From positions 7,427 through 71,426 of the forward strand of contig CAZAFB010000005.1 in assembly GCA_964484505.1 (NCBI GenBank): DNA of 64,000 bases. Direction: 5' to 3'. Each line of letters opens with the position of its first letter. Position 1 is the first letter of the stretch. The notes beneath the pieces are model-generated. The model worked only from the letters and a program-made list of their open reading frames with translations, did not search any database and had not been told where the DNA came from. Shown piece by piece: positions 972 through 52,553 of this stretch. The position numbers were made by a program, and so were the translations under genes. Source of the DNA: an uncultured Bdellovibrionales bacterium. Its GTDB lineage: Bacteria; Patescibacteriota; Minisyncoccia; Moranbacterales; GWC2-37-73.

Positions 972-998
972 AAATAAATAGGAATTTTTTTATTTTAA

Positions 999-1111
999 GA
1001 CTTACACGTTTGTCTGAAACAAAGAAATGGGTCTCTGCGCTTCATTGCATAAATGTTAATAGACAAAGCGCATAGGGGCCCATTTAGACTTGAAGACAAA
1101 ATGCGTAAGTC
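999..1111. repeat. Structured intergenic repeat, copy 1 (outer stem gacttacacgtttgtc / gacaaaatgcgtaagtc; inner stem aaatgggtc / ggcccattt)
   Basis: Nested inverted repeats; homologous to 37421-37526 and degenerate copy at 40021-40120; lies between SpoU stop and HAD start. Confidence 0.55.
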
Positions 1112-1113
1112 TC

Positions 1114-1620
1114 CTATATAACCTCGCCAATCCTATTATACAGCTCATATCCTGCAACTCCAAGAGCGACAGCAACATTGAGAGAATTTTTTGTGCCACG
1201 CATGGGAATTTCAATTATCGCATCACACGCGTCAACAACTTCTTTTTCCATGCCAACAGGTTCATTGCCAAGAATAAGCGCTACGGATTTTCGAGGAATA
1301 TAATTTTTGTAATCTATACTCCTATCATCTTGTTCAAGCGCAACTATTTCAAAATTTCTATCTTTTAATTCCCTTATCAATTCCGATATATTTTCTTTCT
1401 TCTCCCAAGCCAAATTCTTTTCAGCTCCAAGTGCTGTCTTGGCAATCATTTTTTGAGCACTGGTTTGTAGAATTTTTTTCCCGTCATGCGGTGAAGGTGT
1501 ATATCCTGTCAGGTACAATTTTTTCGCGCCCATTCCGTCAGCGGTACGAAAAATAGAGCCTACATTGTAGGCACTTCTGATATTATGAGCTATTATGTGT
1601 AATTTCTTTCCTGCGCTCAT
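1114..1620 (-). CDS. SpoU/TrmH-family (SPOUT) RNA 2'-O-methyltransferase
   Basis: Motifs NVGSIFRTADGMG, ILGNEPVGM, IPMRGTKNSLNVAVALGV typical of the SpoU methylase domain. Confidence 0.8.
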   Translation of the reverse strand: MSAGKKLHIIAHNIRSAYNVGSIFRTADGMGAKKLYLTGYTPSPHDGKKILQTSAQKMIAKTALGAEKNLAWEKKENISELIRELKDRNFEIVALEQDDRSIDYKNYIPRKSVALILGNEPVGMEKEVVDACDAIIEIPMRGTKNSLNVAVALGVAGYELYNRIGEVI

Positions 1621-7716: not shown

Positions 7717-7824
7717 ATGTTTTTGTTTTCATTACAATACAATTGTACAACATAAACCAAAGTGTAGAAAGCCGCAAAAAACAAAAGAGGCCTTTAAAGA
7801 CCTCTTTTGTAATATTCAACTTTT

Positions 7825-8559
7825 TTATCCTTCATGATTCATCAATCTGTTGAAATACAAATCGACATCACTGACCCACTTGCGAACCGCTTGCGGATCA
7901 TGTCCCGCACAACTGGAACCACATTTCCAAACGACCATACGCGAAGGGGTGTTTAAATTTTTGTCCACTAATTCGCCTATACGGCCGCCTATCGCATCCA
8001 CAGCTTCTTCAGGATCAGCAAAGCAGCCATATCCCATTGCGGTGCCGAGACTTCCGGCACCCTTATACCCCCAATAGTTATAGCAAGTCATCCCGTTCTT
8101 AGACGGAGCAGCCTTGCCCCAATCGCTTTCTTTTTTGGCGATACCAATGATCAGCGCAGCAACGCGCTTATCTTTTTCAGCTATGAAAGGAACCATTTCC
8201 TTGATTGGCGCATTGCCAACCACATCATAAAGTTCCTGTTCAAACCCGTCCTCATTTGCACTGGATGCATCTTTCGGATCTTCGTTTTTTTCAAAACACT
8301 GACCGTCCTCCTGCTCTGACTTTGAGAAAACCTGCGCCTGAGCATTTTGGATCGAATCTTTTACAGAGGCCTTTTGGGCATCTATATTTTCAGCATATGC
8401 ATATACATATTGCTGCGGTTGCAAGCGATCGAGACGAAAAAAAGAACCCGCCATGACTGCCATGGCGATGGTCGCGATTAGGATCTTTTTTTGTTTCGCC
8501 CGACCTTCTTTTTGCTTCCAGTTAAGCAACCAATTCCCCCATTCAGGGCTTTTACCCAT
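7825..8559 (-). CDS. Membrane-anchored GH73-like (glucosaminidase/FlgJ-type) peptidoglycan hydrolase, paralog 1
   Basis: IAKKESDWGK (cf. GH73 ESGWG catalytic-Glu motif); CYNYWGYK (cf. NNLFGIK); MVVWKCG; four conserved Cys; N-terminal TM segment. Confidence 0.5.
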   Translation of the reverse strand: MGKSPEWGNWLLNWKQKEGRAKQKKILIATIAMAVMAGSFFRLDRLQPQQYVYAYAENIDAQKASVKDSIQNAQAQVFSKSEQEDGQCFEKNEDPKDASSANEDGFEQELYDVVGNAPIKEMVPFIAEKDKRVAALIIGIAKKESDWGKAAPSKNGMTCYNYWGYKGAGSLGTAMGYGCFADPEEAVDAIGGRIGELVDKNLNTPSRMVVWKCGSSCAGHDPQAVRKWVSDVDLYFNRLMNHEG

Positions 8560-8783: not shown

Positions 8784-9851
8784 TCAGTCTGCCATTTTCT
8801 TGATGTACATATCCACATCGTTAATCCATTTGTTGGCAGCAGCTCTGCCTCCCGTCGCATTGCAATCGCGACCACATTTCCAAACCACCATTTCCGAAGG
8901 CGTATCAATATTTTCTTCTTTTATAAGAGTACTTAAGCGTTTAGCAACAGTATCGACAGCGTCTTTCTTACTATTGAAACAGGTATGTCCGCCTGTACCC
9001 ATCAAATTGCGCTGAGCGCGATATCCCCAAAGATTATTACAATCTTGTCCTTCTAAAGTTGGTACTCTTTTCCCCCAGTTGCTTTCTTTTTTGGCAATAG
9101 CGATCAGATAGGTAGCGACTTTGCGGTCTTTGGCAAAGATATAAGGAAGCATCTCCTCGATAGGATATCCCTTGACCATTTTGCGTACTTCCTGCTCAAA
9201 TTTGTCCTGATCGTTTATTTCATCAAATTGACTAAGCACTTTTTCCGCCTCCGTCATATTACTATAATCAGCGCTTGCCAAATCGGAATTATCCGTTTGT
9301 ATTTGCTGATGCGTTGCAGGTTCCGTTGCGATGTTTCCAGCAGCAGCACCCTGACCAAGATAACGATAAATCATAGTCATGGAAAACATTCCCAGCAATA
9401 TCGCGCCAACAATCGAAAGATTCCACAAGCGCACCAATGACAACTGTTGAACAAAACCTCTCATAGCGCCATCGACAGCTTCAGCGCTTTGTCTGGAGAT
9501 AGCATCAATTCTGCGCTCAAGAGAGCGAGCTAATATACCGACTGAAGATGGCTGGTATGATTTATATTCACGCACGATACGGCTGCTAAGACTATCCCAT
9601 TTTTTAATATCGCGATCCAGTTTAATGCCCTTGCTGATCCATTGGTATTCGCGTGGAGTAATATAGCGGCGAGAATCCTCTGTTATAAACTTTCCCGTAC
9701 GATACTTGTTTGATAAAAGTTGAGAAAAATTAATTTGTCTGTCTTTTTTTTCACGCAAATTCTCGTAAATTGCCAAGTCAAAATAAGGATCAACCCTTCG
9801 CGGCACCCTGCCGAAATCGATATTTATTTTTGTCTTTGTATTAAAATTCAT
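8784..9851 (-). CDS. Membrane-anchored GH73-like peptidoglycan hydrolase, paralog 2, with extra N-terminal cytoplasmic region
   Basis: IAKKESNWGK, DCNNLWGYR, GGHTCF, MVVWKCG, DVDMY motifs shared with 7825-8559 and 37620-38228; internal TM segment. Confidence 0.5.
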   Translation of the reverse strand: MNFNTKTKINIDFGRVPRRVDPYFDLAIYENLREKKDRQINFSQLLSNKYRTGKFITEDSRRYITPREYQWISKGIKLDRDIKKWDSLSSRIVREYKSYQPSSVGILARSLERRIDAISRQSAEAVDGAMRGFVQQLSLVRLWNLSIVGAILLGMFSMTMIYRYLGQGAAAGNIATEPATHQQIQTDNSDLASADYSNMTEAEKVLSQFDEINDQDKFEQEVRKMVKGYPIEEMLPYIFAKDRKVATYLIAIAKKESNWGKRVPTLEGQDCNNLWGYRAQRNLMGTGGHTCFNSKKDAVDTVAKRLSTLIKEENIDTPSEMVVWKCGRDCNATGGRAAANKWINDVDMYIKKMAD

Positions 9852-29757: not shown

Positions 29758-29760
29758 ATC

Positions 29761-29923
29761 CCTACGAATTACGAATTTATACGAATGTACGAATCATTTT
29801 TCATGCATTTGTAATCAATTCATAACTAAGCTTAAATTTTTTATCATCTCACAACTTAATTTGAAACATTTATTCTTTTTGTCTTCCTTTCGTACATTCG
29901 TATTTTGTTCGTAATTCGTAGAG
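29761..29923. promoter_or_regulatory. Pair of 33-bp inverted ACGAAT/ATTCGT hexamer arrays flanking an ~90-bp spacer, immediately upstream of typA start
   Basis: cctacgaattacgaatttatacgaatgtacgaatc (29761-29795) versus its reverse complement tttcgtacattcgtattttgttcgtaattcgtagag (29888-29923). Confidence 0.5.
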
Positions 29924-30077
29924 AAAACAAAAGACTGCCTTGTGGGCAGCAAATGTCCTAAGCCCTTGAAATATAGCAGGAAAAATACTATATGTCAATA
30001 TTTTAAAAGCCGCTCCTTTATTAAAGCAGAGCGGCATATAAAACTTTTGGGAAAGCTTGAAGCACATTATGACACGA

Positions 30078-37402: not shown

Positions 37403-37420
37403 GTTACTCTTTGTATCTAG

Positions 37421-37526
37421 GGCTTACGCGTTTGCCCGAAATAAGAAATGGGTATTTGCGCTTCCTTTAAGAAAAATATCAAAGCGCATAGGGGCCCATT
37501 TCGACTTGAGGGTAAATGCGTAAGTC
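37421..37526. repeat. Structured intergenic repeat, copy 2 (outer stem gcttacgcgtttgccc / gggtaaatgcgtaagtc; inner stem aaatgggt / gcccattt)
   Basis: Homologous to 999-1111 with compensatory changes in the outer stem (gtc/gac in copy 1, gccc/gggt here). Confidence 0.55.
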
Positions 37527-37619
37527 CTAACATTATTTTGTTACCAATATATAATATCATAAATCCGCAAACGAAAAAAGGCTACCTTGATACAGATAGC
37601 CTTCGAGCATTATTCACTT

Positions 37620-38228
37620 TTATTCATCGGCAAGCTGACTATAGTAATAATCCACGTCTTGTTCCCATTTTTTTACGCTTGCTGTCGGATGAGTACAATT
37701 ATATCCACACTTCCACACAACCATTTTTTTGGGAGTATCCAAATTTTCTTCATTAACCATTTTGTCTATACGGCTGGCAATTGCATCAACAGCTTCTTTG
37801 GGATTATCAAAACAAGTGTGTCCACCACTACCCATTTTTTCCGATTTCATGCGAAAGCCCCAATAATTATAACAGTCTTCTCCGGCAAGCACCGGCTTTC
37901 TTTTGCCCCAATTGCTTTCTTTTTTGGCAATGCCCACAATAAAAGCAGCGACTTCACGGTCATAGGAAGCAATATATGGAGTCATTTGTTCAATCGGATA
38001 TCCCTTAACCATTTCCTTAATTTCCTTTTCTAGAGCAGCATTCTTTTGGGGAGCTTCCTGCACGATTAGTGTCGGCATATTTATTTCACGCCTAGCATGC
38101 TGAGAAACAACCAAAAACGTCTCCAAAAAGACAATGGCGATGATAAGCCCCAAAATGCGGGCACGGGACGGACTGATATTTCCCAAATCAAGTCCCAAAT
38201 ATATATTTTTTTTGCTTTTTTTAGCCAT
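37620..38228 (-). CDS. Membrane-anchored GH73-like peptidoglycan hydrolase, paralog 3
   Basis: IAKKESNWGK, DCYNYWGFR, GGHTCF, MVVWKCG, DVDYY motifs; N-terminal TM segment. Confidence 0.5.
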   Translation of the reverse strand: MAKKSKKNIYLGLDLGNISPSRARILGLIIAIVFLETFLVVSQHARREINMPTLIVQEAPQKNAALEKEIKEMVKGYPIEQMTPYIASYDREVAAFIVGIAKKESNWGKRKPVLAGEDCYNYWGFRMKSEKMGSGGHTCFDNPKEAVDAIASRIDKMVNEENLDTPKKMVVWKCGYNCTHPTASVKKWEQDVDYYYSQLADE

Positions 38229-38924: not shown

Positions 38925-40004
38925 ATGAAAAAAAATATCTTTTTCATCATCCTGCCAATTGCAATTTTTGCAGGCTTATTGATTTTTAGAAACACAGTAC
39001 AAAAAACAGAGGGCGAAGTTTCTCCTGAAGTTGACAAAATAATGCCAGCAAAAATACAATTTGCCTCCGAAAGTAAAAGTATTGTTATTAAAAATGAATA
39101 TCCTGCGACCATAGGTGCAGACCAAGAGGCTACCATAACTGCAAAAACTTCCGGCACAGTTACCGCCGTCAATTTTGATTTAGGCAAATATGTTGGAAGC
39201 GGCAGCTTGTTAGTGAGAATAGACGACACTAGCGCAAATCTTGCTACTGGAGATAACAATTTAAAAAGCGCGCAAGTTAAACAATTGGAGATAGCCGTGC
39301 AAGAAGCTGAGCGATCCTTAAAACTTGCCAAGAAGAATGAGTCTGAAGACAGCACTTCAGCTACCAGGGCAGCCGAAGATATCGCTAAGCTACAATTGGA
39401 AAACGCAAAGGTAGCATTAAGTAGCGCCCTTGACTCACATAATGTGATCGCCCCCATAAGCGGATCGGTAACATCAAAAAATGTTTCGGTTGGTGATTCT
39501 ATTTCCCAGGGACAAACCCTGGCAACCATAAGCAAAACCGGTCAAATAAAGCTTACTTTTTTTGTCGAACAAGATAAAATAAATTCCTTAACAATTGGCG
39601 ATAAAATCTTGGCGACGACCCCCGATAACATCTCTTTCGAAGCTGTTGTGAGTAATATAGCTCCGCAAGCCGACAGTGTTACAAAAAGATTTCAAGTTGA
39701 TGCTAAGTTTACAGAAAAAATAAATCTAAAGCCAGGAACTATTATTTCGGTAAAAATAACCCGGGAAGAGAATGTCAGCGAAAACAAAAACGTCATATTG
39801 CCACTTTCGGCGATTACAATAGCCCAAAATGAAAACTATCTTTTTGTGGTTGAGAACGATTTGGCCAAAAAAATTAACTTCGAGATTGTCCGCATTTTTG
39901 GGGAAAATGCCGAATTAAAAGCAGACATTGCCGATAACGCGCAAATAGTCATCGAAGGAAACAAGCTTCTGAAAGATGGTAGCAAAATAAAAATTCTGAA
40001 TTAG
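38925..40004 (+). CDS. Efflux membrane fusion protein (HlyD/RND adaptor family)
   Basis: N-terminal TM segment; biotinyl-lipoyl-like hairpins (TITAKTSGTVTAVNFDLG…LLVRID; VIAPISGSVTSKNVSVGD); coiled-coil. Confidence 0.8.
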   Translation: MKKNIFFIILPIAIFAGLLIFRNTVQKTEGEVSPEVDKIMPAKIQFASESKSIVIKNEYPATIGADQEATITAKTSGTVTAVNFDLGKYVGSGSLLVRIDDTSANLATGDNNLKSAQVKQLEIAVQEAERSLKLAKKNESEDSTSATRAAEDIAKLQLENAKVALSSALDSHNVIAPISGSVTSKNVSVGDSISQGQTLATISKTGQIKLTFFVEQDKINSLTIGDKILATTPDNISFEAVVSNIAPQADSVTKRFQVDAKFTEKINLKPGTIISVKITREENVSENKNVILPLSAITIAQNENYLFVVENDLAKKINFEIVRIFGENAELKADIADNAQIVIEGNKLLKDGSKIKILN

Positions 40005-40020
40005 GACTTTAGGATATTAC

Positions 40021-40120
40021 GGACTTGCCTGAAACAAAGAGATGTCCTTCACACTTCACTGATAAATACTTAGGGATCAGAAAACATAGCAACCCATTGG
40101 AACTTGAGGGCAAATGCATA
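40021..40120. repeat. Degenerate copy 3 of the structured intergenic repeat, in the leader of the RND gene
   Basis: Shares ctgaaacaaaga…cccatt…gacttgagggcaaatgc with copies 1 and 2. Confidence 0.4.
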
Positions 40121-43100
40121 ATGTCTAACTATTACCACTTAACTATGGACAAACAACAATCATCGGATTCCAGATATTTGGAAAAACTAGAATTCAAGCC
40201 GGAACTACGCAAGACTTGGTTAAATTTTTTTGTTACCAATTTTCGCGTAGTCGTTCTTTTAATTGTGCTACTCAGCGCCTGGGGCATATATTCATTCGTT
40301 AGCCTTCCTCGAGAATCGGATCCTGAAGTGAAAATCCCCTATGCAATGGTAATTACGACCTTCCCGGGCGCTTCACCTTCAGACATTGAAGAATTGGTTA
40401 CCAAAAAGATTGAGACTGTGATTTCCAGCGTGAAAGGCGTGAAGAAAATAACTTCCGATTCTTCCAATTCAATATCCTCGATAACCGTAGAATTCGATAG
40501 CAGCGAAGATCAAGACGAAGCCTTGCGCAATTTACGTGACAAAGTCTCCACTGTAGACGATCTTCCGGATGATGCAAGCGAGCCATCCGTAAATGAAATA
40601 TCCTTGGATGACACTCCTATTTTTACTTTTTCCATTTCCGGACCATATGATGGATTAACATTGCGAGAATATGCCGAAAAAATTCAAGACGAGTTGGAAA
40701 AAATTCCCGGTGTTCGTGAAGTGAATGTTTCTGGTGGAGACCAGAAAGAATTCGAGGTTGCCTATGATCCACAAAAACTTTCTTTGTATGAAATTACCGC
40801 CAATCAAGCAAATTTGGCAATCAGCGCAACGAATGTCGCCATAGCCGGAGGAAACTACGAGGGCGCTTCTTTCAATTATCCTGTGCGGACAGACGCGCGT
40901 TTCTTCGATGAAAAATCATTAGGTGAAGCTCCGATAAAACATAACGGTAGCGCCATTGTACAGTTAAAGGACATAGCCTCAGTCAAAGAAAAAGCGATCC
41001 AGCGCAATGTATATTCCCGTCTCTCCGTGGAAGGAGACGCGCCTCAAGAAGCGGTGACGATTAGCGTCATCAAAAAAACGGGAGGCTCAATCATCAAAAC
41101 CACTGATGAATGCAAAAAAAGAATCGAGACGATGATGAAAACTTTTCCCGAAGGAGTTTCCTATGACACCACCTCGGACACTTCCAAGTTCATTCGTCGC
41201 GATTTCGACCAACTGACACATGATTTCATCCTTACCCTTATATTGGTGATGACTATATTGTTTCTGATCGTTGGATTTAAAGAAGCTATAGTTGCCGGAC
41301 TGGCCATCCCCTTGGTGTTTTTTGCAACATTCGGCATAATGTTGCTCACAGGCATAACGCTTAATTTCCTTTCATTGTTCTCCTTGCTTCTTTCCTTGGG
41401 GCTCTTGGTTGATGATGCCATTGTGGTAGTCAGCGCGACAAAACAATATATGCGTACGGGTAAATTCACGCCTGAAGAAGCTGTACTGCTTGTGCTTAAT
41501 GATTTCAAAGTGGTGCTTACTTCCACCACACTGGCTACGACTTGGGCGTTTTTACCGCTTCTTTTCTCAACAGGTATCATGGGTTCGTATATTAAATCTA
41601 TTCCCATAACTGTTTCCGTGACACTTATTTCATCATTGATCATTGCTTTGATTGTAAATCATCCCCTCGCCGCAATCCTGGAGCGCATCCGCCTTACTCG
41701 AAACATTTTCCGCATAGACATCGCATTACTTTTGATTTTGGCAATCGTCGGTTTCTTAAGCAAGTCCACTTTCGGCAGCGCACTCTTCGCAATTTCCCTG
41801 ACAATGATCGTGTGGCTTGTTTGGTGGTATCGCAAAAAGGGCAAAAGGCAGCTAATCGCTAATGAGGCTTTGGCAAAAGAAGAATGGAAAAATGACGAGC
41901 TGATCAAGAAAAAACTGGCCTCCCAGGGAAGCACCGAGGATACTTCTTTTTCCAGCAAGCTTATTCACGGCATCATCCACTTCGATAAAGTAATACCCGT
42001 CTACGAGAAATATCTCAAGCTGGTTATTTCCACCAAAAAATCACGCTGGATTACTTTACTTGCTACACTTGTTTTATTTATCGGTGCCATAATCCTGCCT
42101 ATAACAGGCGTTGTTCCTTCGGAATTTTTTCCTGCTTCAGACCAAGATAATATCTATGTAAATATCGAAGCTCCATCTGGATTGAATCTCGACAAGACAG
42201 ATTACATCACCAGAAAAGTCGAGGAAAAACTTCTGGCTTTTCCTCAGGTAGCCAATTTTTCCACAGTAATAGGAAAAAGCGGTTCTTCAGGTCATCGTAT
42301 CAGCGGCTCCATGAGCGGCTCGACCCATTTGGCTTCCATAACGATAACCTTGGTTGAGAAAGAACTTCGCGAGGAAACTTCCTATGAGCTTGAAAAAGAT
42401 ATCAGAAATGCTATTTCAGGCGTTGAAGGAGCAAAAATAACCGTGGAATCACAACGTGGCGGACCGCCATCAGGCAGCGCCTTCGAAGCGCAAATTCGCG
42501 GAGATGATTTGCAAGCTTTAGACACTATAGTACAAGATTTGCAAATAAAACTATCCGAAATTAAAGGTGTTGTAAATATAGACTCTTCTCTCAAAGAAGC
42601 GCCGGCTCAATACACTTTTGCACTCAACCCCGTGAAAATGGAGCTATATGGCCTCAATGCTTCTTACGTAGGTTCATCTATCCGCATGGCAATTTCCGGA
42701 GTAGACGTCTCCACAATCATCAAAAACAACAAGGAATTCGATGTTATTGCGCGTTTCGACAAAAGCAAGCTTCCAGATCTTGAATCAGTCCAGAATATCC
42801 AACTCACAAACTTGCAAGGAAATCCCGTGTATATCAAAGATGTTGCAACAGTAAAGTTGGAGCCATCTATTGAAACTATAAGCAGAATAGATCAAAAACG
42901 CGTAGCAATTCTGAGTGCGGGAGTTGAAGGAACAACCAGACCCAATGACGTACTAGCCCAATTCCAAAAGAAAGTCTCGGAAGAATACTCTCTGCCCGAG
43001 GGATATGAAATAACCTATGGCGGCGAAAATGAACAAAATCAAGAATCAGTCATGTCGATTATCCGCGCAATGGCGATTGCCGCAGTTTTGATAATTTCAA

Positions 43101-49856: not shown

Positions 49857-49975
49857 CTGACCTAATTTATATATATTTAGGTGACTTAACTGACCTAAAT
49901 ATATATCATTTTGGTGATTTTGTCAAGATTTTGGGCAAGAAAAAAGCGCCCGTCAACCACGACAGGCGCAAAACA

Positions 49976-50242
49976 TTACTTCTCGAGGCGGATGTCAAGC
50001 CCACCGCCTCTGGACACCTTTACGGTGTCCCCCTTGTGGGCTCTTCGGCCCGAAAAATTTAGAGGGTAGTTACCCCACGGTGTTTCCACCGTGGCCAGTA
50101 ACTTGTCCCCCATCTTTCCCCCGGGGGCAGGTTCCGTGAGTAACCTGCCCACCCCCTCTTCTACGGGGGAAAGGAACGGCCACAACAGCAGCGACAGTAT
50201 CACTGCTGCTACCACCGCTACTGCCAAATCCCCTTTTTTCAT
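49976..50242 (-). CDS. Small GC-rich ORF (88 aa, one hydrophobic segment), cassette ORF-A
   Basis: Preceded by GAGGAGG RBS within a repeated promoter cassette; followed by minus-strand terminator gcgcctgtcgtggttgacgggcgc + T6 (about 49935-49972); GC content well above the flanking genome. Confidence 0.35.
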   Translation of the reverse strand: MKKGDLAVAVVAAVILSLLLWPFLSPVEEGVGRLLTEPAPGGKMGDKLLATVETPWGNYPLNFSGRRAHKGDTVKVSRGGGLDIRLEK

Positions 50243-50350
50243 ACTTCCTCCTCGCCCCGCTTCTGCGGAGCTTTTTTGATTTTGACTACCCAATAATATT
50301 TTCAAATAAAAACATAAAGGGTAGTCAAAAATGGAAAAATTTATCAAAGA
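50238..50350. promoter_or_regulatory. Promoter/operator-RBS cassette, copy 1: perfect 10-bp inverted repeat TTGACTACCC…GGGTAGTCAA
   Basis: The inverted repeat supplies a TTGACT -35 hexamer on both strands; followed by GC hairpin and GAGGAGG RBS on minus strand; homologous to 50888-51010. Confidence 0.5.
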
Positions 50351-50437
50351 ACAAAAACTTTCTGTCTGAATTTACATCTTGTGATATAAACTCGGAAAAA
50401 AGTGGGAGCGAGCGACCAAGCAACGCTCCCGAAACCA

Positions 50438-50890
50438 TCATGCCTCTGCAGGCACCTCTCTCTGAATGTTCTTTGAGAAAGAGGGGGTGCATGTCGCCCC
50501 TACGTGCTGGGCGGCGACATACACCAACCCACCACTCTCGGGGAAATTCTCCCCGAGAAGGCGGTAAAGCTCCCTTGTCCGTTCGCCGATCAGGCGAGCG
50601 GGGAAAAGGCCTTTGTGTGGGCATGCCGAGAACGCCTCGGCGTAACCCTGCTCCTGCCATTCTTCCGGGGCAGGAGCAAGAAACACATTGTACTTCGCGT
50701 TGCCGATCAGCAACGCGCTGTGCAAAGTGTTCCAGGAGGTGAAGCCGAACTCCACCTCCTCTCTATGGTCAGTGTTCCGACCATAGAGATTCACCGCCAC
50801 TCGGGTTTCCCCAAAAGTGGCGAAAATGTCAGTTGAGTCCTCGATGCTTCTCAGCATCGAGGAAAGAATTTCAAAATTTTTCCTTCTCAT
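50438..50890 (-). CDS. GC-rich ORF (150 aa), cassette ORF-B, hypothetical
   Basis: ATG 6 nt downstream of GGAGGA in cassette copy 2; own terminator gggagcgttgcttggtcgctcgctccc + T-run (about 50395-50430). Confidence 0.4.
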   Translation of the reverse strand: MRRKNFEILSSMLRSIEDSTDIFATFGETRVAVNLYGRNTDHREEVEFGFTSWNTLHSALLIGNAKYNVFLAPAPEEWQEQGYAEAFSACPHKGLFPARLIGERTRELYRLLGENFPESGGLVYVAAQHVGATCTPSFSKNIQREVPAEA

Positions 50891-51010
50891 ACTTCCTCCT
50901 CGCCCCGCTTCTGCGGAGCTTTTTTAATTTTGACTACCCAGCGATATTTTCAATATAAAAAATACTCAGGGTAGTCAAACTGGAAAATGAAATTTTTATC
51001 AAAGAACAAA
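50888..51010. promoter_or_regulatory. Promoter/operator-RBS cassette, copy 2
   Basis: ttgactacccagcgatattttcaatataaaaaatactcagggtagtcaa; reads as TTGACT-N18-TATAAA on plus strand and TTGACT…TATATT on minus. Confidence 0.5.
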
Positions 51011-51276
51011 TTCTCTCAGAAACTTTCATCAAATAACTTCATGAAAATTTCAATTGAGAGGAGAAGAATAACCACATTCTTCTCCAAAAAACTTCAATCT
51101 GAGTTGACCTTTAGCCCGTCGAATGACTGGGCTCCGCTCTGATTAGTAAGGAGTGTTCTTTTTTAAGTCGAACACACAAACGACTTGAGAACTTCTATTT
51201 AACCTCCCTAATCTCGATAACTGTCCCACCAAAATAATTTTGGTAGGAATCTATAGAGCAGATTTCTTTGGGAGTA

Positions 51277-51320
51277 CAGACGTACTGTCTGTACTCCCCC
51301 GTTAATCTTTTTTTCACAAC
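51277..51320 (+). terminator. Strong intrinsic terminator (gggagtacagac gtact gtctgtactccc + T-run)
   Basis: 12-bp perfect stem followed by cgttaatcttttttt on plus strand. Confidence 0.55.
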
Positions 51321-51339
51321 TACTATAATTTTTTTTGCC

Positions 51340-51500
51340 ACATTTCCTCCTCGCCCCATCTTGCGACGGGGCTGACGTCGGTCGTCACCCATTTTTTGCA
51401 CCGCTCACAAAAACATCTTTGTTGCTTGAAAATATTTTTGCGAGCAGTACAGTTTGAGGAAAACGAAATTTGGAATTTTTAAATCAAAGAACTTCTGTGG
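51340..51500. repeat. Degenerate third copy of the cassette (RBS-like catttcctcctcgcccc, GC hairpin, ttgaaaatat, ggaaaacgaaattt…atcaaagaac) without the inverted-repeat halves
   Basis: Aligns with 50238-50350 and 50888-51010 downstream regions. Confidence 0.4.
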
Positions 51501-52403
51501 ACTTGTCGAGCACTTTTGAAAATAGTGCTTAATTCCCTCCACAATTCTGTATGTGACAGGTATCTGGCTTTTTGGGTTCCGATTACTCGGAAAGAGAGAG
51601 ATAACCCAAGATGCAAGACAGATGCCAACGTATCACATACAGGATTGCGGAGACAATTTTGTTTTTCGGTAAAGGTTACGATGCCTGTTTGGTTTAGCGG
51701 TTATGTTTTTCGGCATGCGAACCTAACCTTAACCTTTTGACGATACGGGCTTCATTACCTTTACCGTTTTACAATACTGGGCGCGACACTCTCTCTTCAT
51801 CGCGCCTGTTTTATATAAATTGCTTTAATTTGCTATCCTTGTGTTCGACTCCGTACTTTGTACTTAATGAGTTCACAAGGAGTGTAGTGGATACATGCTA
51901 TCTTTTGATTCATGTGTCCACCTTCACTCATTGCGAAGATGTGGAAGTATTAGCGAACCTCACCGTAGGAATGTCTCCCTCTTTAGGTTATTCCTACAAC
52001 TTGGTTACGACTTGCTCAGGTCATGGTTAGCGACCTGCCTTAATTCCAAATGAGTAATGGAATCAGATGCACATCTTTTGTAAATCGTTGCCTTGTCCAG
52101 CTTTGTGGAAAGGGGGATATGCAAGAAAGCCGCCTTCTTTTTTTGAGGAGGCGGCTTTGCTTTATTCAATGTCTGCGCCTCTCTCTTTGCGCATCCCTCT
52201 TTTCACAGAGGATATTTGATTGTTAATGGGGTGTTACGCTTTTTCGGATGTGCGCTTTCGGATACTTCATCGTAACACCGCATTATACACCCAGAAACAC
52301 TTTTTGTCAATGGTTTTGGTGCAATATTTTGGCTAACTGTCGCTTTTTTCTTTACTATGGTGTTATTTTTGGCGTGTTTTTGAAAATATTTTGTCATTTT
52401 CGA

Positions 52404-52432
52404 ATTGACATTTTTGAAATTGTTTGCTATAA
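52404..52432 (+). promoter_or_regulatory. Consensus sigma70-type promoter TTGACA-N17-TATAAT upstream of TrmB-family regulator gene
   Basis: ttgacatttttgaaattgtttgctataat; followed by two 8-bp hairpins arranged as a larger palindrome (about 52463-52548). Confidence 0.55.
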
Positions 52433-52553
52433 TGGGAGTAGAAATAACCAATAAATTTGTCATCCTGAACTTGTTTCAGGATCTACGTAATAGAAAGCGC
52501 AGCGAAATAAAGCTCGGGATTCCGGATCAAGTCCGGAATGACAAAGTAAAAAA

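Follow-up and report, generated by a model that had tools for sequence, protein, structure and literature searches.

Does an intergenic repeat of ~110 nt that folds into a nested hairpin represent a structured RNA selected for its fold, or a mobile element? The question is raised by a stretch of DNA of 64,000 nucleotides (hereafter the window; GenBank assembly GCA_964484505.1, contig CAZAFB010000005.1, positions 7,427 to 71,426), in which three copies of such a repeat are found. The closest named homologues belong to Candidatus Moranbacteria/Moraniibacteriota, and the host is, as judged from its sequence, a Moranbacteria-like member of the candidate phyla radiation (CPR). The original prediction had described the repeat as a candidate structured non-coding RNA (ncRNA) or a miniature inverted-repeat transposable element (MITE), with a lean to the former. 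The analysis described below favors the latter: the repeat is probably a non-autonomous MITE that inserts at TA dinucleotides, and the lean to an ncRNA is disfavored by the TA duplications, an empty site in a relative, the absence of the element from sister species, and the lack of an Rfam match.

The three-copy element was confirmed by alignment, all copies lying in + orientation (Table 1), and by a covariance model (R1) built from the three copies, which, in a scan of the window with filters off, matched positions 997–1114 (124 bits), 37419–37529 (121 bits), and 40012–40127 (98 bits) and gave nothing above noise beyond them. Copies 1 and 2 share ~80% identity (divergence about 18%), and copy 3 is further diverged; the 21-mer AAAGCGCATAGGGGCCCATTT occurs twice in the window against 0 occurrences expected, and a terminal core (CTTACRCGTTTG) is common to the copies. 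The copies are 108–122 nt long and have no coding capacity, and a small open reading frame (ORF) was rejected as an explanation because no frame is conserved between them. Public annotations place a 102-aa "gene" at 37448–37756 (+), which starts from an ATG within copy 2 and runs antisense into the neighboring gene; no homologue of it was found among 5.8 billion proteins, and it is almost certainly spurious. A protein-library search with this ORF and a 40-aa read-through frame, intended to catch miscalled copies, matched nothing but the query ORF and some eukaryotic repeat proteins of no relevance. Five Logan contigs (L049, L050, L052, L054, and L055), which come from different runs, all stop at 37508 within copy 2, suggesting that the assembly graph branches there; the branch could be caused by a further near-identical copy elsewhere or by strain polymorphism at the 3' arm.

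The boundaries of the repeat are sharply defined. The copies resemble one another precisely up to the base of the outer stem, and no similarity is seen beyond the TA dinucleotide that stands on both sides of the element in 3/3 copies, the ends reading TA-AGACTTAC...GTAAGTCTCC-TA in copy 1, TA-GGGCTTAC...GTAAGTCC-TA in copy 2, and TA-GGACTT...AATGTC-TA in copy 3. With an intergenic TA frequency of 0.067, and with a 3x3 boundary freedom allowed, the chance of TA flanks at all copies is ~7e-5. Two of the flanking dinucleotides belong to stop codons of the upstream genes. At copy 1, the - strand gene for an SpoU methylase ends with ATA TA-G GAGACTTAC..., in which G is the terminal base of the element, and the far end of the copy reads ...GTAAGTCT-TA AAATAAAA on the same strand, AAAT following the TA. 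TAG accounts for 10/46 of the stop codons in the window, and this low share is compatible with stop codons regenerated by the element, without being a proof of it.

The neighborhoods of the three copies were then compared with those taken from four related species, in which a scan of ~165 kb with R1 (filters off) found no copy. At the site of copy 3, the genes for an HlyD-type MFP and an RND pump are separated by 7 nt only in L056 (GCA_964500125.1) and L064, which thus represent the empty site. The junction of L056 reads GAC TAA CTATCAT ATG, and that of the window AAT TA-element-TA ACTATTACC...ATG, so that deletion of the element and one TA from the window rebuilds TAACTAT, namely the stop codon plus spacer of L056. 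Moreover, the MFP stop codon is TAA in L056, L064, and L058, and TAG in the window. The rebuilt TAACTAT and the TAA/TAG contrast together point to a TA target-site duplication within the stop codon, and on the simplest reading copy 3 would represent an insertion into the stop-codon TA that duplicated the TA, the first G of the element having remade the stop. Copy 1 is arranged in the same way on the - strand. Target-site duplication had been named in the original prediction as a sign of a MITE, and it is observed here as TA at 3/3 copies with a matching empty site in a relative.

The spacer between the SpoU and HAD hydrolase genes consists of 100 nt of unrelated sequence in L039, and in L037 and L043 the region has a different gene order with gaps of 11–15 nt. 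In the leader of the coiled-coil protein gene next to copy 2, conserved flanks are seen (the window and L064 have the same upstream terminator sequence, and the TTTTGTTACC block is shared), and the inserts between them in the window, L064, and L056 are 110–130 nt long and mutually unrelated; L058 has essentially none. Such near-identical flanks around unrelated inserts indicate replacement or independent insertion rather than gradual divergence. The insert of L064 folds strongly (z -4.4 to -5.6), and the fold of the L056 insert has no significant advantage over shuffled sequence (z -1.2 to -1.5). The MFP–RND gap of L058 contains another, unrelated hairpin, to which R1 gave a weak match (16 bits, E 0.08); this was treated as a different hairpin family and not as a homologue. 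No similarity above that of shuffled controls was found between the element and the fillers of the orthologous sites in relatives, and an apparent resemblance in L056 (ACGCCTGCCC) was dropped for this reason. Unrelated inserts of 106–139 nt occur in relatives at the junctions of copies 2 and 3 (L064:8437–8575, L056:8452–8585, and L058:11078–11183), two of the three (L064 and L058) being significant hairpins. The coiled-coil leader and the MFP–RND junction are either insertion hot spots or the only permissive sites.

Table 1. Positions of the three repeat copies, their flanking dinucleotides, and the helices of the predicted fold in the window
Feature	Position	Strand	Remarks
Copy 1	998..1114	+	117 nt, intact; reads AGACTTACACGTTTGTCT...AGACAAAATGCGTAAGTCTCC
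Copy 2	37420..37527	+	108 nt, intact; reads GGGCTTACGCGTTTGCCC...GGGTAAATGCGTAAGTCC
Copy 3	40004..40125	+	122 nt (114 nt with the alternative left boundary); degenerate
TA left of copy 1	996..997		putative target-site duplication
TA right of copy 1	1115..1116		first two bases of the SpoU stop codon TAG (- strand, 1116->1114)
TA left of copy 2	37418..37419		
TA right of copy 2	37528..37529		
TA left of copy 3	40002..40003		first two bases of the MFP stop codon TAG (40002-40004)
TA right of copy 3	40126..40127		followed by ACTAT
Outer helix, 18 pairs	998-1015 with 1094-1112		copy 1 coordinates
5' terminal inverted repeat	998..1015	+	5' arm of the outer helix; core CTTACRCGTTTG
3' terminal inverted repeat	1094..1112	+	3' arm of the outer helix
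Middle helix, 8 pairs	1025-1032 with 1078-1085	+	AAATGGGT/GCCCATTT
Inner helix, 7 pairs	1036-1042 with 1066-1072	+	TGCGCTT/AAGCGCA
Intrinsic-terminator-like hairpin and T-run of the gene upstream of copy 2	37577..37604	-	outside the element; sequence identical in L064

The nested hairpin of the original prediction is obtained for copies 1 and 2 from both strands; it consists of three helices (Table 1), with energies of -42.5 kcal/mol (z -6.2) and -50.6 kcal/mol (z -8.3) for the + strands of copies 1 and 2, respectively, and of -38.0 kcal/mol (z -6.4) and -35.8 kcal/mol (z -5.7) for the - strands. The terminal loop is variable, and the interior (1025–1085, +, in copy 1) is also self-complementary, so that the whole unit is one long imperfect palindrome. 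Copy 3, already described as degenerate in the original prediction, retains Watson-Crick pairs at 17/33 positions only and its folding does not surpass that of shuffled sequence (z +1.0 and +0.2). Three pairs of the outer stem are changed on both sides between copies 1 and 2 (A-T versus G-C at 998/1112, and T-A versus C-G at 1013/1096 and 1015/1094), and two further pairs show a one-sided change via G.T. By a rough estimate, ~0.2–0.3 neutral double hits would be expected against the 3 compensatory changes seen. When pairs were counted over six distinct sequences (the three loci plus strain variants), the pairing amounted to 91.9%, and six pairs were found to be changed on both sides, all of them in helix 1, i.e., the terminal inverted repeat, and none in helices 2 and 3; these covariation statistics rest on three independent loci only. 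The compensatory changes reported in the original prediction were thus borne out for three outer-stem pairs, but all of them lie within the terminal inverted repeat, which weakens their use as an argument for a functional RNA. The arms could be held complementary by selection for an RNA or single-stranded DNA fold, by hairpin-templated repair, or by the existence of subfamilies with co-evolved ends. Assignment of a strand from the asymmetry of G.U pairs was dropped, the difference (7 versus 3 events) being not significant.

Variation among strains of the same species was used to follow the element over a shorter time. Copy 1 is unchanged in ten assemblies, save one single-nucleotide polymorphism in L006. 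Strain L062, which is 96.9% identical genome-wide and shows 7.4% divergence at fourfold-degenerate sites, differs at 5/117 positions of copy 1 (4.3%), all by transitions; on the + strand, three of them make G.U, one mends an A.C mismatch, and one makes C.A. Copy 2 of strain L063 carries five changes, located in the internal loop, in the terminal loop, and at the junction of the loop and helix 3 (a new C-G), together with a U.G and a helix-breaking A.A. The element thus changes at a rate close to neutral or a little lower, the inner helices are not spared, and there is no clear constraint. In the MFP–RND gap of L063, a 117-nt hairpin (L063:676–792, - strand) has the same terminal core (GGRYTTACRCGYTT...AARYGCGTAA-YCC) and a different interior; its global alignment with the element gave a z of 3.5–4.0 (p<=0.001). 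Such kept ends with a swapped interior are typical of related MITE subfamilies.

Other structural differences between strains were also noticed. In some strains, the genes for a 244-aa protein and an EamA protein are separated by a 3.5-kb gene that encodes a surface-type protein of 1175 aa and is absent in the window (window 7717–7824 versus L002:112–3904), and many contigs of the species break between rplT and rpmI, ~315 nt ahead of the window; both indicate strain-level structural variation. A 15-mer that equals the 5' end of copy 2 (GGGCTTACGCGTTTG) is present in L002 (3609–3623), and also in L004 and L062, antisense in the coding sequence of the 1175-aa fn3/CarboxypepD_reg protein. It falls in a segment of the protein (QTRKP) that is conserved in relatives, with no similarity beyond it, and was judged probably a coincidence.

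Based on these observations, we propose that the element is a non-coding MITE of 108–122 bp with imperfect terminal inverted repeats of ~18 bp (5'-RGRCTTACRCGTTTGYCY), which would insert at TA dinucleotides in AT-rich intergenic DNA with duplication of the TA. The duplication is regarded as the signature of IS630/Tc1-mariner-type transposition, and we infer that a transposase of this superfamily encoded elsewhere supplies the activity in trans. In a compact genome, insertions would persist only at a few permissive spots: copies 1 and 3 are assumed to have entered the TA of the TAA stop codon of the upstream gene, with the terminal G of the element restoring TAG, and copy 2 would have been inserted between a promoter-like block and a start codon. 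The inserted element is likely to be co-transcribed with the host genes and predicted to form a stable hairpin from either strand, which may have incidental, secondary effects at the RNA level, on the processing and stability of the mRNA or on translational coupling. Copy 3 would be an old, decaying insertion, and copies 1 and 2 may be younger or belong to another subfamily. What is found here, a non-coding unit below ~300 bp, terminal inverted repeats at its exact ends, a TA duplication, and filled and empty orthologous sites, is what characterizes MITEs, and the 2-bp TA target duplication is that of the IS630/Tc1-mariner type. Bacterial MITEs have been described as being <200 bp, with terminal inverted repeats, 5'-TA-3' termini, target-site duplication, and transcripts forming long stem-loops (Delihas 2008, PMC2229807), and by our comparison the element appears to match this published profile, as represented by RUP, Correia, and ERIC.

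Several points weigh against this assignment. The TA...TA flanks also extend the palindrome and may be read as part of it instead of as a duplication; an extra CC intervenes between the paired stem of copy 1 and its right TA; the left boundary of copy 3 is ambiguous, with the TA at 40002 or at 40010 (40010–40011); and a clean comparison with an empty site is provided by the site of copy 3 only. The census is small, with 3 copies in ~84 kb of the host genome and one related element besides, in another strain. In addition, neither a transposase nor a complete insertion sequence whose terminal repeats match was found in the window, its flanks, or the fetched loci. Simple neutral decay of a transposon would predict neither the three full compensatory changes of the outer stem nor the identity of the middle and inner helices in copies 1 and 2, and non-Watson-Crick pairs lean to G.U on the + strand, if not significantly.

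The keeping of intact stems by compensatory changes would be explained by a structured cis-acting RNA of whatever origin, the fold of which is selected in host mRNA as a 5' stabilizer, an RNase III site, or a translation decoupler. The three double compensatory changes and the two G.U half-steps that separate copies 1 and 2 are all transitions, and the pairing exceeds that of shuffles (88.1%; 0/500 reach the observed value), although these shuffle statistics are weak with three independent copies and the covariation does not extend beyond the terminal-repeat helix. Copies 1 and 2 have the same inner helices despite ~18% overall divergence, and most stem substitutions in L062 and L063 keep the + strand pairing; however, at copies 1 and 2 the better-folding + strand runs antisense to the mRNAs, copy 3 has decayed and is inverted, and the divergence between strains is not clearly below neutral. 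All three copies end 16–25 nt upstream of a start codon, but the ribosome-binding region is not sequestered by the hairpin and a U-tract is absent. Unrelated inserts are found in the same leader (three lineages) and in the same MFP–RND gap (three lineages), which could reflect selection for any hairpin; on the other side, orthologous sites occur without the element, the flanking genes are functionally unrelated, and a match in Rfam is absent. Taken together, orthologous conservation, a fixed orientation, and covariation in helices 2 and 3, which are generally expected of a functional RNA, are not seen, and we consider such an RNA unlikely. A combined view, in which a guild of unrelated TA-inserting hairpins of ~110 nt recolonizes the same junctions (stop codons rebuilt by the terminal G, and gene leaders), the stem being kept by selection through compensatory transitions, would make the element a domesticated mRNA-acting module spread by transposition, with the fold acting in mRNA processing, stabilization, or the uncoupling of overlapping operon genes; this joint claim appears to be rather unlikely.

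The palindrome might also have spread otherwise than as a TA-inserting MITE, namely as a REP/BIME-like or an IS200/IS605-derived (PATE-like) repeat moved in single-stranded form by a Y1 (HUH) transposase, or through recombination or gene conversion. A gene for a 223-aa Y1 transposase (Y1_Tnp, PF01797; IS200/IS605 or RAYT type) lies directly upstream of SpoU in one related species (L043:9299–9970, also in L044 and L045), and none is present in the window. The full-length hairpin, with G.T wobbles favoring one DNA strand, would suit recognition of single-stranded DNA, and these genomes carry several unrelated families of intergenic hairpins. REPs are 20–40 nt long and clustered, and the ends of IS200/IS605 are not mutual inverted repeats and give no target duplication; the present element has genuine inverted repeats at its ends, is flanked by TA...TA, and has a matching empty site, and such a mode of spread is considered quite improbable. 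REP/BIME in the strict sense was rejected, the unit being ~110 nt, occurring singly, and lying in a window without a Y1 gene. Still less credible is a family of independent small-RNA genes transcribed from the + strand, antisense to the flanking genes. The + strand does fold more stably in both intact copies, and all three copies are + in the window, but the conserved unit, with its similarity stopping at the stem base, leaves no room for a promoter or terminator, sites resembling either are not shared, no Rfam match exists, and the element is not kept in relatives, all of which makes this explanation very improbable. Two further candidates were rejected outright: an integron attC site, since GACTTAC/GTAAGTC fit the core (RYYYAAC/GTTRRRY) at 5/7 positions only, neither an integrase nor a cassette array is present, and the neighboring genes are housekeeping genes that are syntenic in relatives; and an intrinsic terminator, since no terminator-like site exists at any copy and the only nearby one (37577–37604) is separate.

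Among known systems, the element most readily compared with the proposed MITE is RUP of pneumococcus, a 107-bp MITE thought to be mobilized by IS630-Spn1 (Delihas 2008, PMC2229807). Both are intergenic and non-coding, have similar lengths (108–117 bp for the intact copies versus 107 bp) and terminal inverted repeats, insert at TA with TA termini, and give a transcript that is one long stem-loop (a predicted fold in the present case). In contrast, there is no sequence similarity between them, no IS630-type partner with matching terminal repeats was identified here, the density is 3 copies in ~84 kb versus ~108 copies per pneumococcal genome, and the host is a CPR bacterium. The Correia/NEMIS elements of Neisseria (~107 and 155 bp) resemble it in their terminal inverted repeats, TA duplication, and filled and empty sites between strains, and in being gene-proximal and co-transcribed as hairpins able to affect mRNA (PMC2229807), but they have terminal repeats of 24–26 bp of other sequence, an IHF site, outward promoters, and RNase III cleavage; the promoter scan made here gave no shared outward promoter. 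Like the ERIC/IRU sequences of enterobacteria (imperfect palindromes of ~127 bp), the element is a palindrome over its whole length in transcribed intergenic regions, with copies differing by stem-keeping changes and with presence or absence varying between related species. ERIC, however, spans many genera and its mobility has never been demonstrated, whereas the present element is seen in one species-level lineage and its TA duplication is evident. An imperfect palindrome placed directly after stop codons is also reminiscent of integron attC and REP/BIME; the element differs from attC by the lack of the RYYYAAC/GTTRRRY core, an integrase, and a cassette array, and from REPs, which are much shorter and associated with RAYT transposases.

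If the assignment to a MITE is correct, it would add a new family, of an ordinary kind, in a little-studied Moranbacteria-like CPR lineage. CPR genomes are very small and dense, and little of their mobile DNA has been catalogued; the element would mean that such genomes still undergo transposition, that surviving copies mark insertion-tolerant junctions such as gene leaders and stop codons regenerated by the element end, and that several unrelated hairpin elements compete for the same spots. No long-standing question is opened thereby, RUP, Correia, and ERIC having been known for decades. In practical terms, the element breaks metagenome assemblies, spawns spurious ORF calls, and can be mistaken for a regulatory RNA.

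The functions of the genes flanking the copies are unrelated. Copy 1 fills the gap from the stop codon of the SpoU methylase gene to the start codon (971) of the HAD hydrolase gene, both on the - strand. Copy 2 ends 16 nt before the start (37402) of the gene for a 123-aa coiled-coil protein and lies downstream of the terminator of the gene 37620–38228 and of a conserved promoter-like block; since the terminator-like hairpin precedes it, copy 2 belongs to the leader of the next transcription unit. Copy 3 is located in the 140-nt gap between the stop codon of the HlyD-type MFP gene and the start of the RND pump gene, both on the + strand, and, with respect to the flanking genes, it points the other way from copies 1 and 2. 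Comparison with relatives identified the ATG at 40145 as the true RND start, by which copy 3 is intergenic. Neither promoter-like nor terminator-like sites are shared by the copies within the repeated unit. The gene context given in the original prediction was correct for SpoU→HAD and HlyD/MFP→RND; the label "GH73 paralog" for 37620–38228 could not be confirmed, a Pfam scan of its protein having found no family. This protein, the only one of three that was scanned, is an apparent paralogue of those encoded at 7825–8559 and 8784–9851, with which its gene shares DNA repeats. No tRNAs were found in the window.

Searches outside the genome were also made. Rfam, with which a comparison had been proposed in the original prediction, gave 0 matches over the whole window at gathering thresholds, and in E-value mode the region of copy 1 gave only matches with E above 2. 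A pattern that fits all three copies (CCCATTNNRACTTGARGRYAAA) had 9 matches in genome_contigs and 17 in metagenome_contigs, all by chance and with the rest of the element absent; this negative is weak because the collections did not hold the source genome, the window's own copies not being recovered. Viral contigs, phage records, and plasmid records contained no true match, and the pattern matches in viral contigs were due to chance.

Other hairpins and repeats unrelated to the element were observed in the window. A second long hairpin of ~166 nt (29759–29924) lies 2 nt upstream of the BipA start codon, and its arms are composed of TACGAAT-type repeats (TCCCTACGAATTACGAA...TTCGTAATTCGTAGAGA). 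A sister species has a 111-nt hairpin with similar ACGAATTACGAAT arms at a different locus (L039:19215–19325, z -7.8), and from their similarity by eye the two may represent another MITE-like family present in both species. The region 49860–52550, ~2.6 kb without a long ORF and without any match in Rfam, contains repeated modules, including two 81-nt repeats (50236–50316 and 50884–50964) that are 89% identical and a motif (TTCCTCCTCGCCCCGCTTCTGCGGAGC) that occurs two to three times in full or in part, and also several long inverted repeats (51531–51658 and 52387–52548). On the - strand, these modules look like a hairpin followed by GGAGGA and ATG in front of small ORFs.

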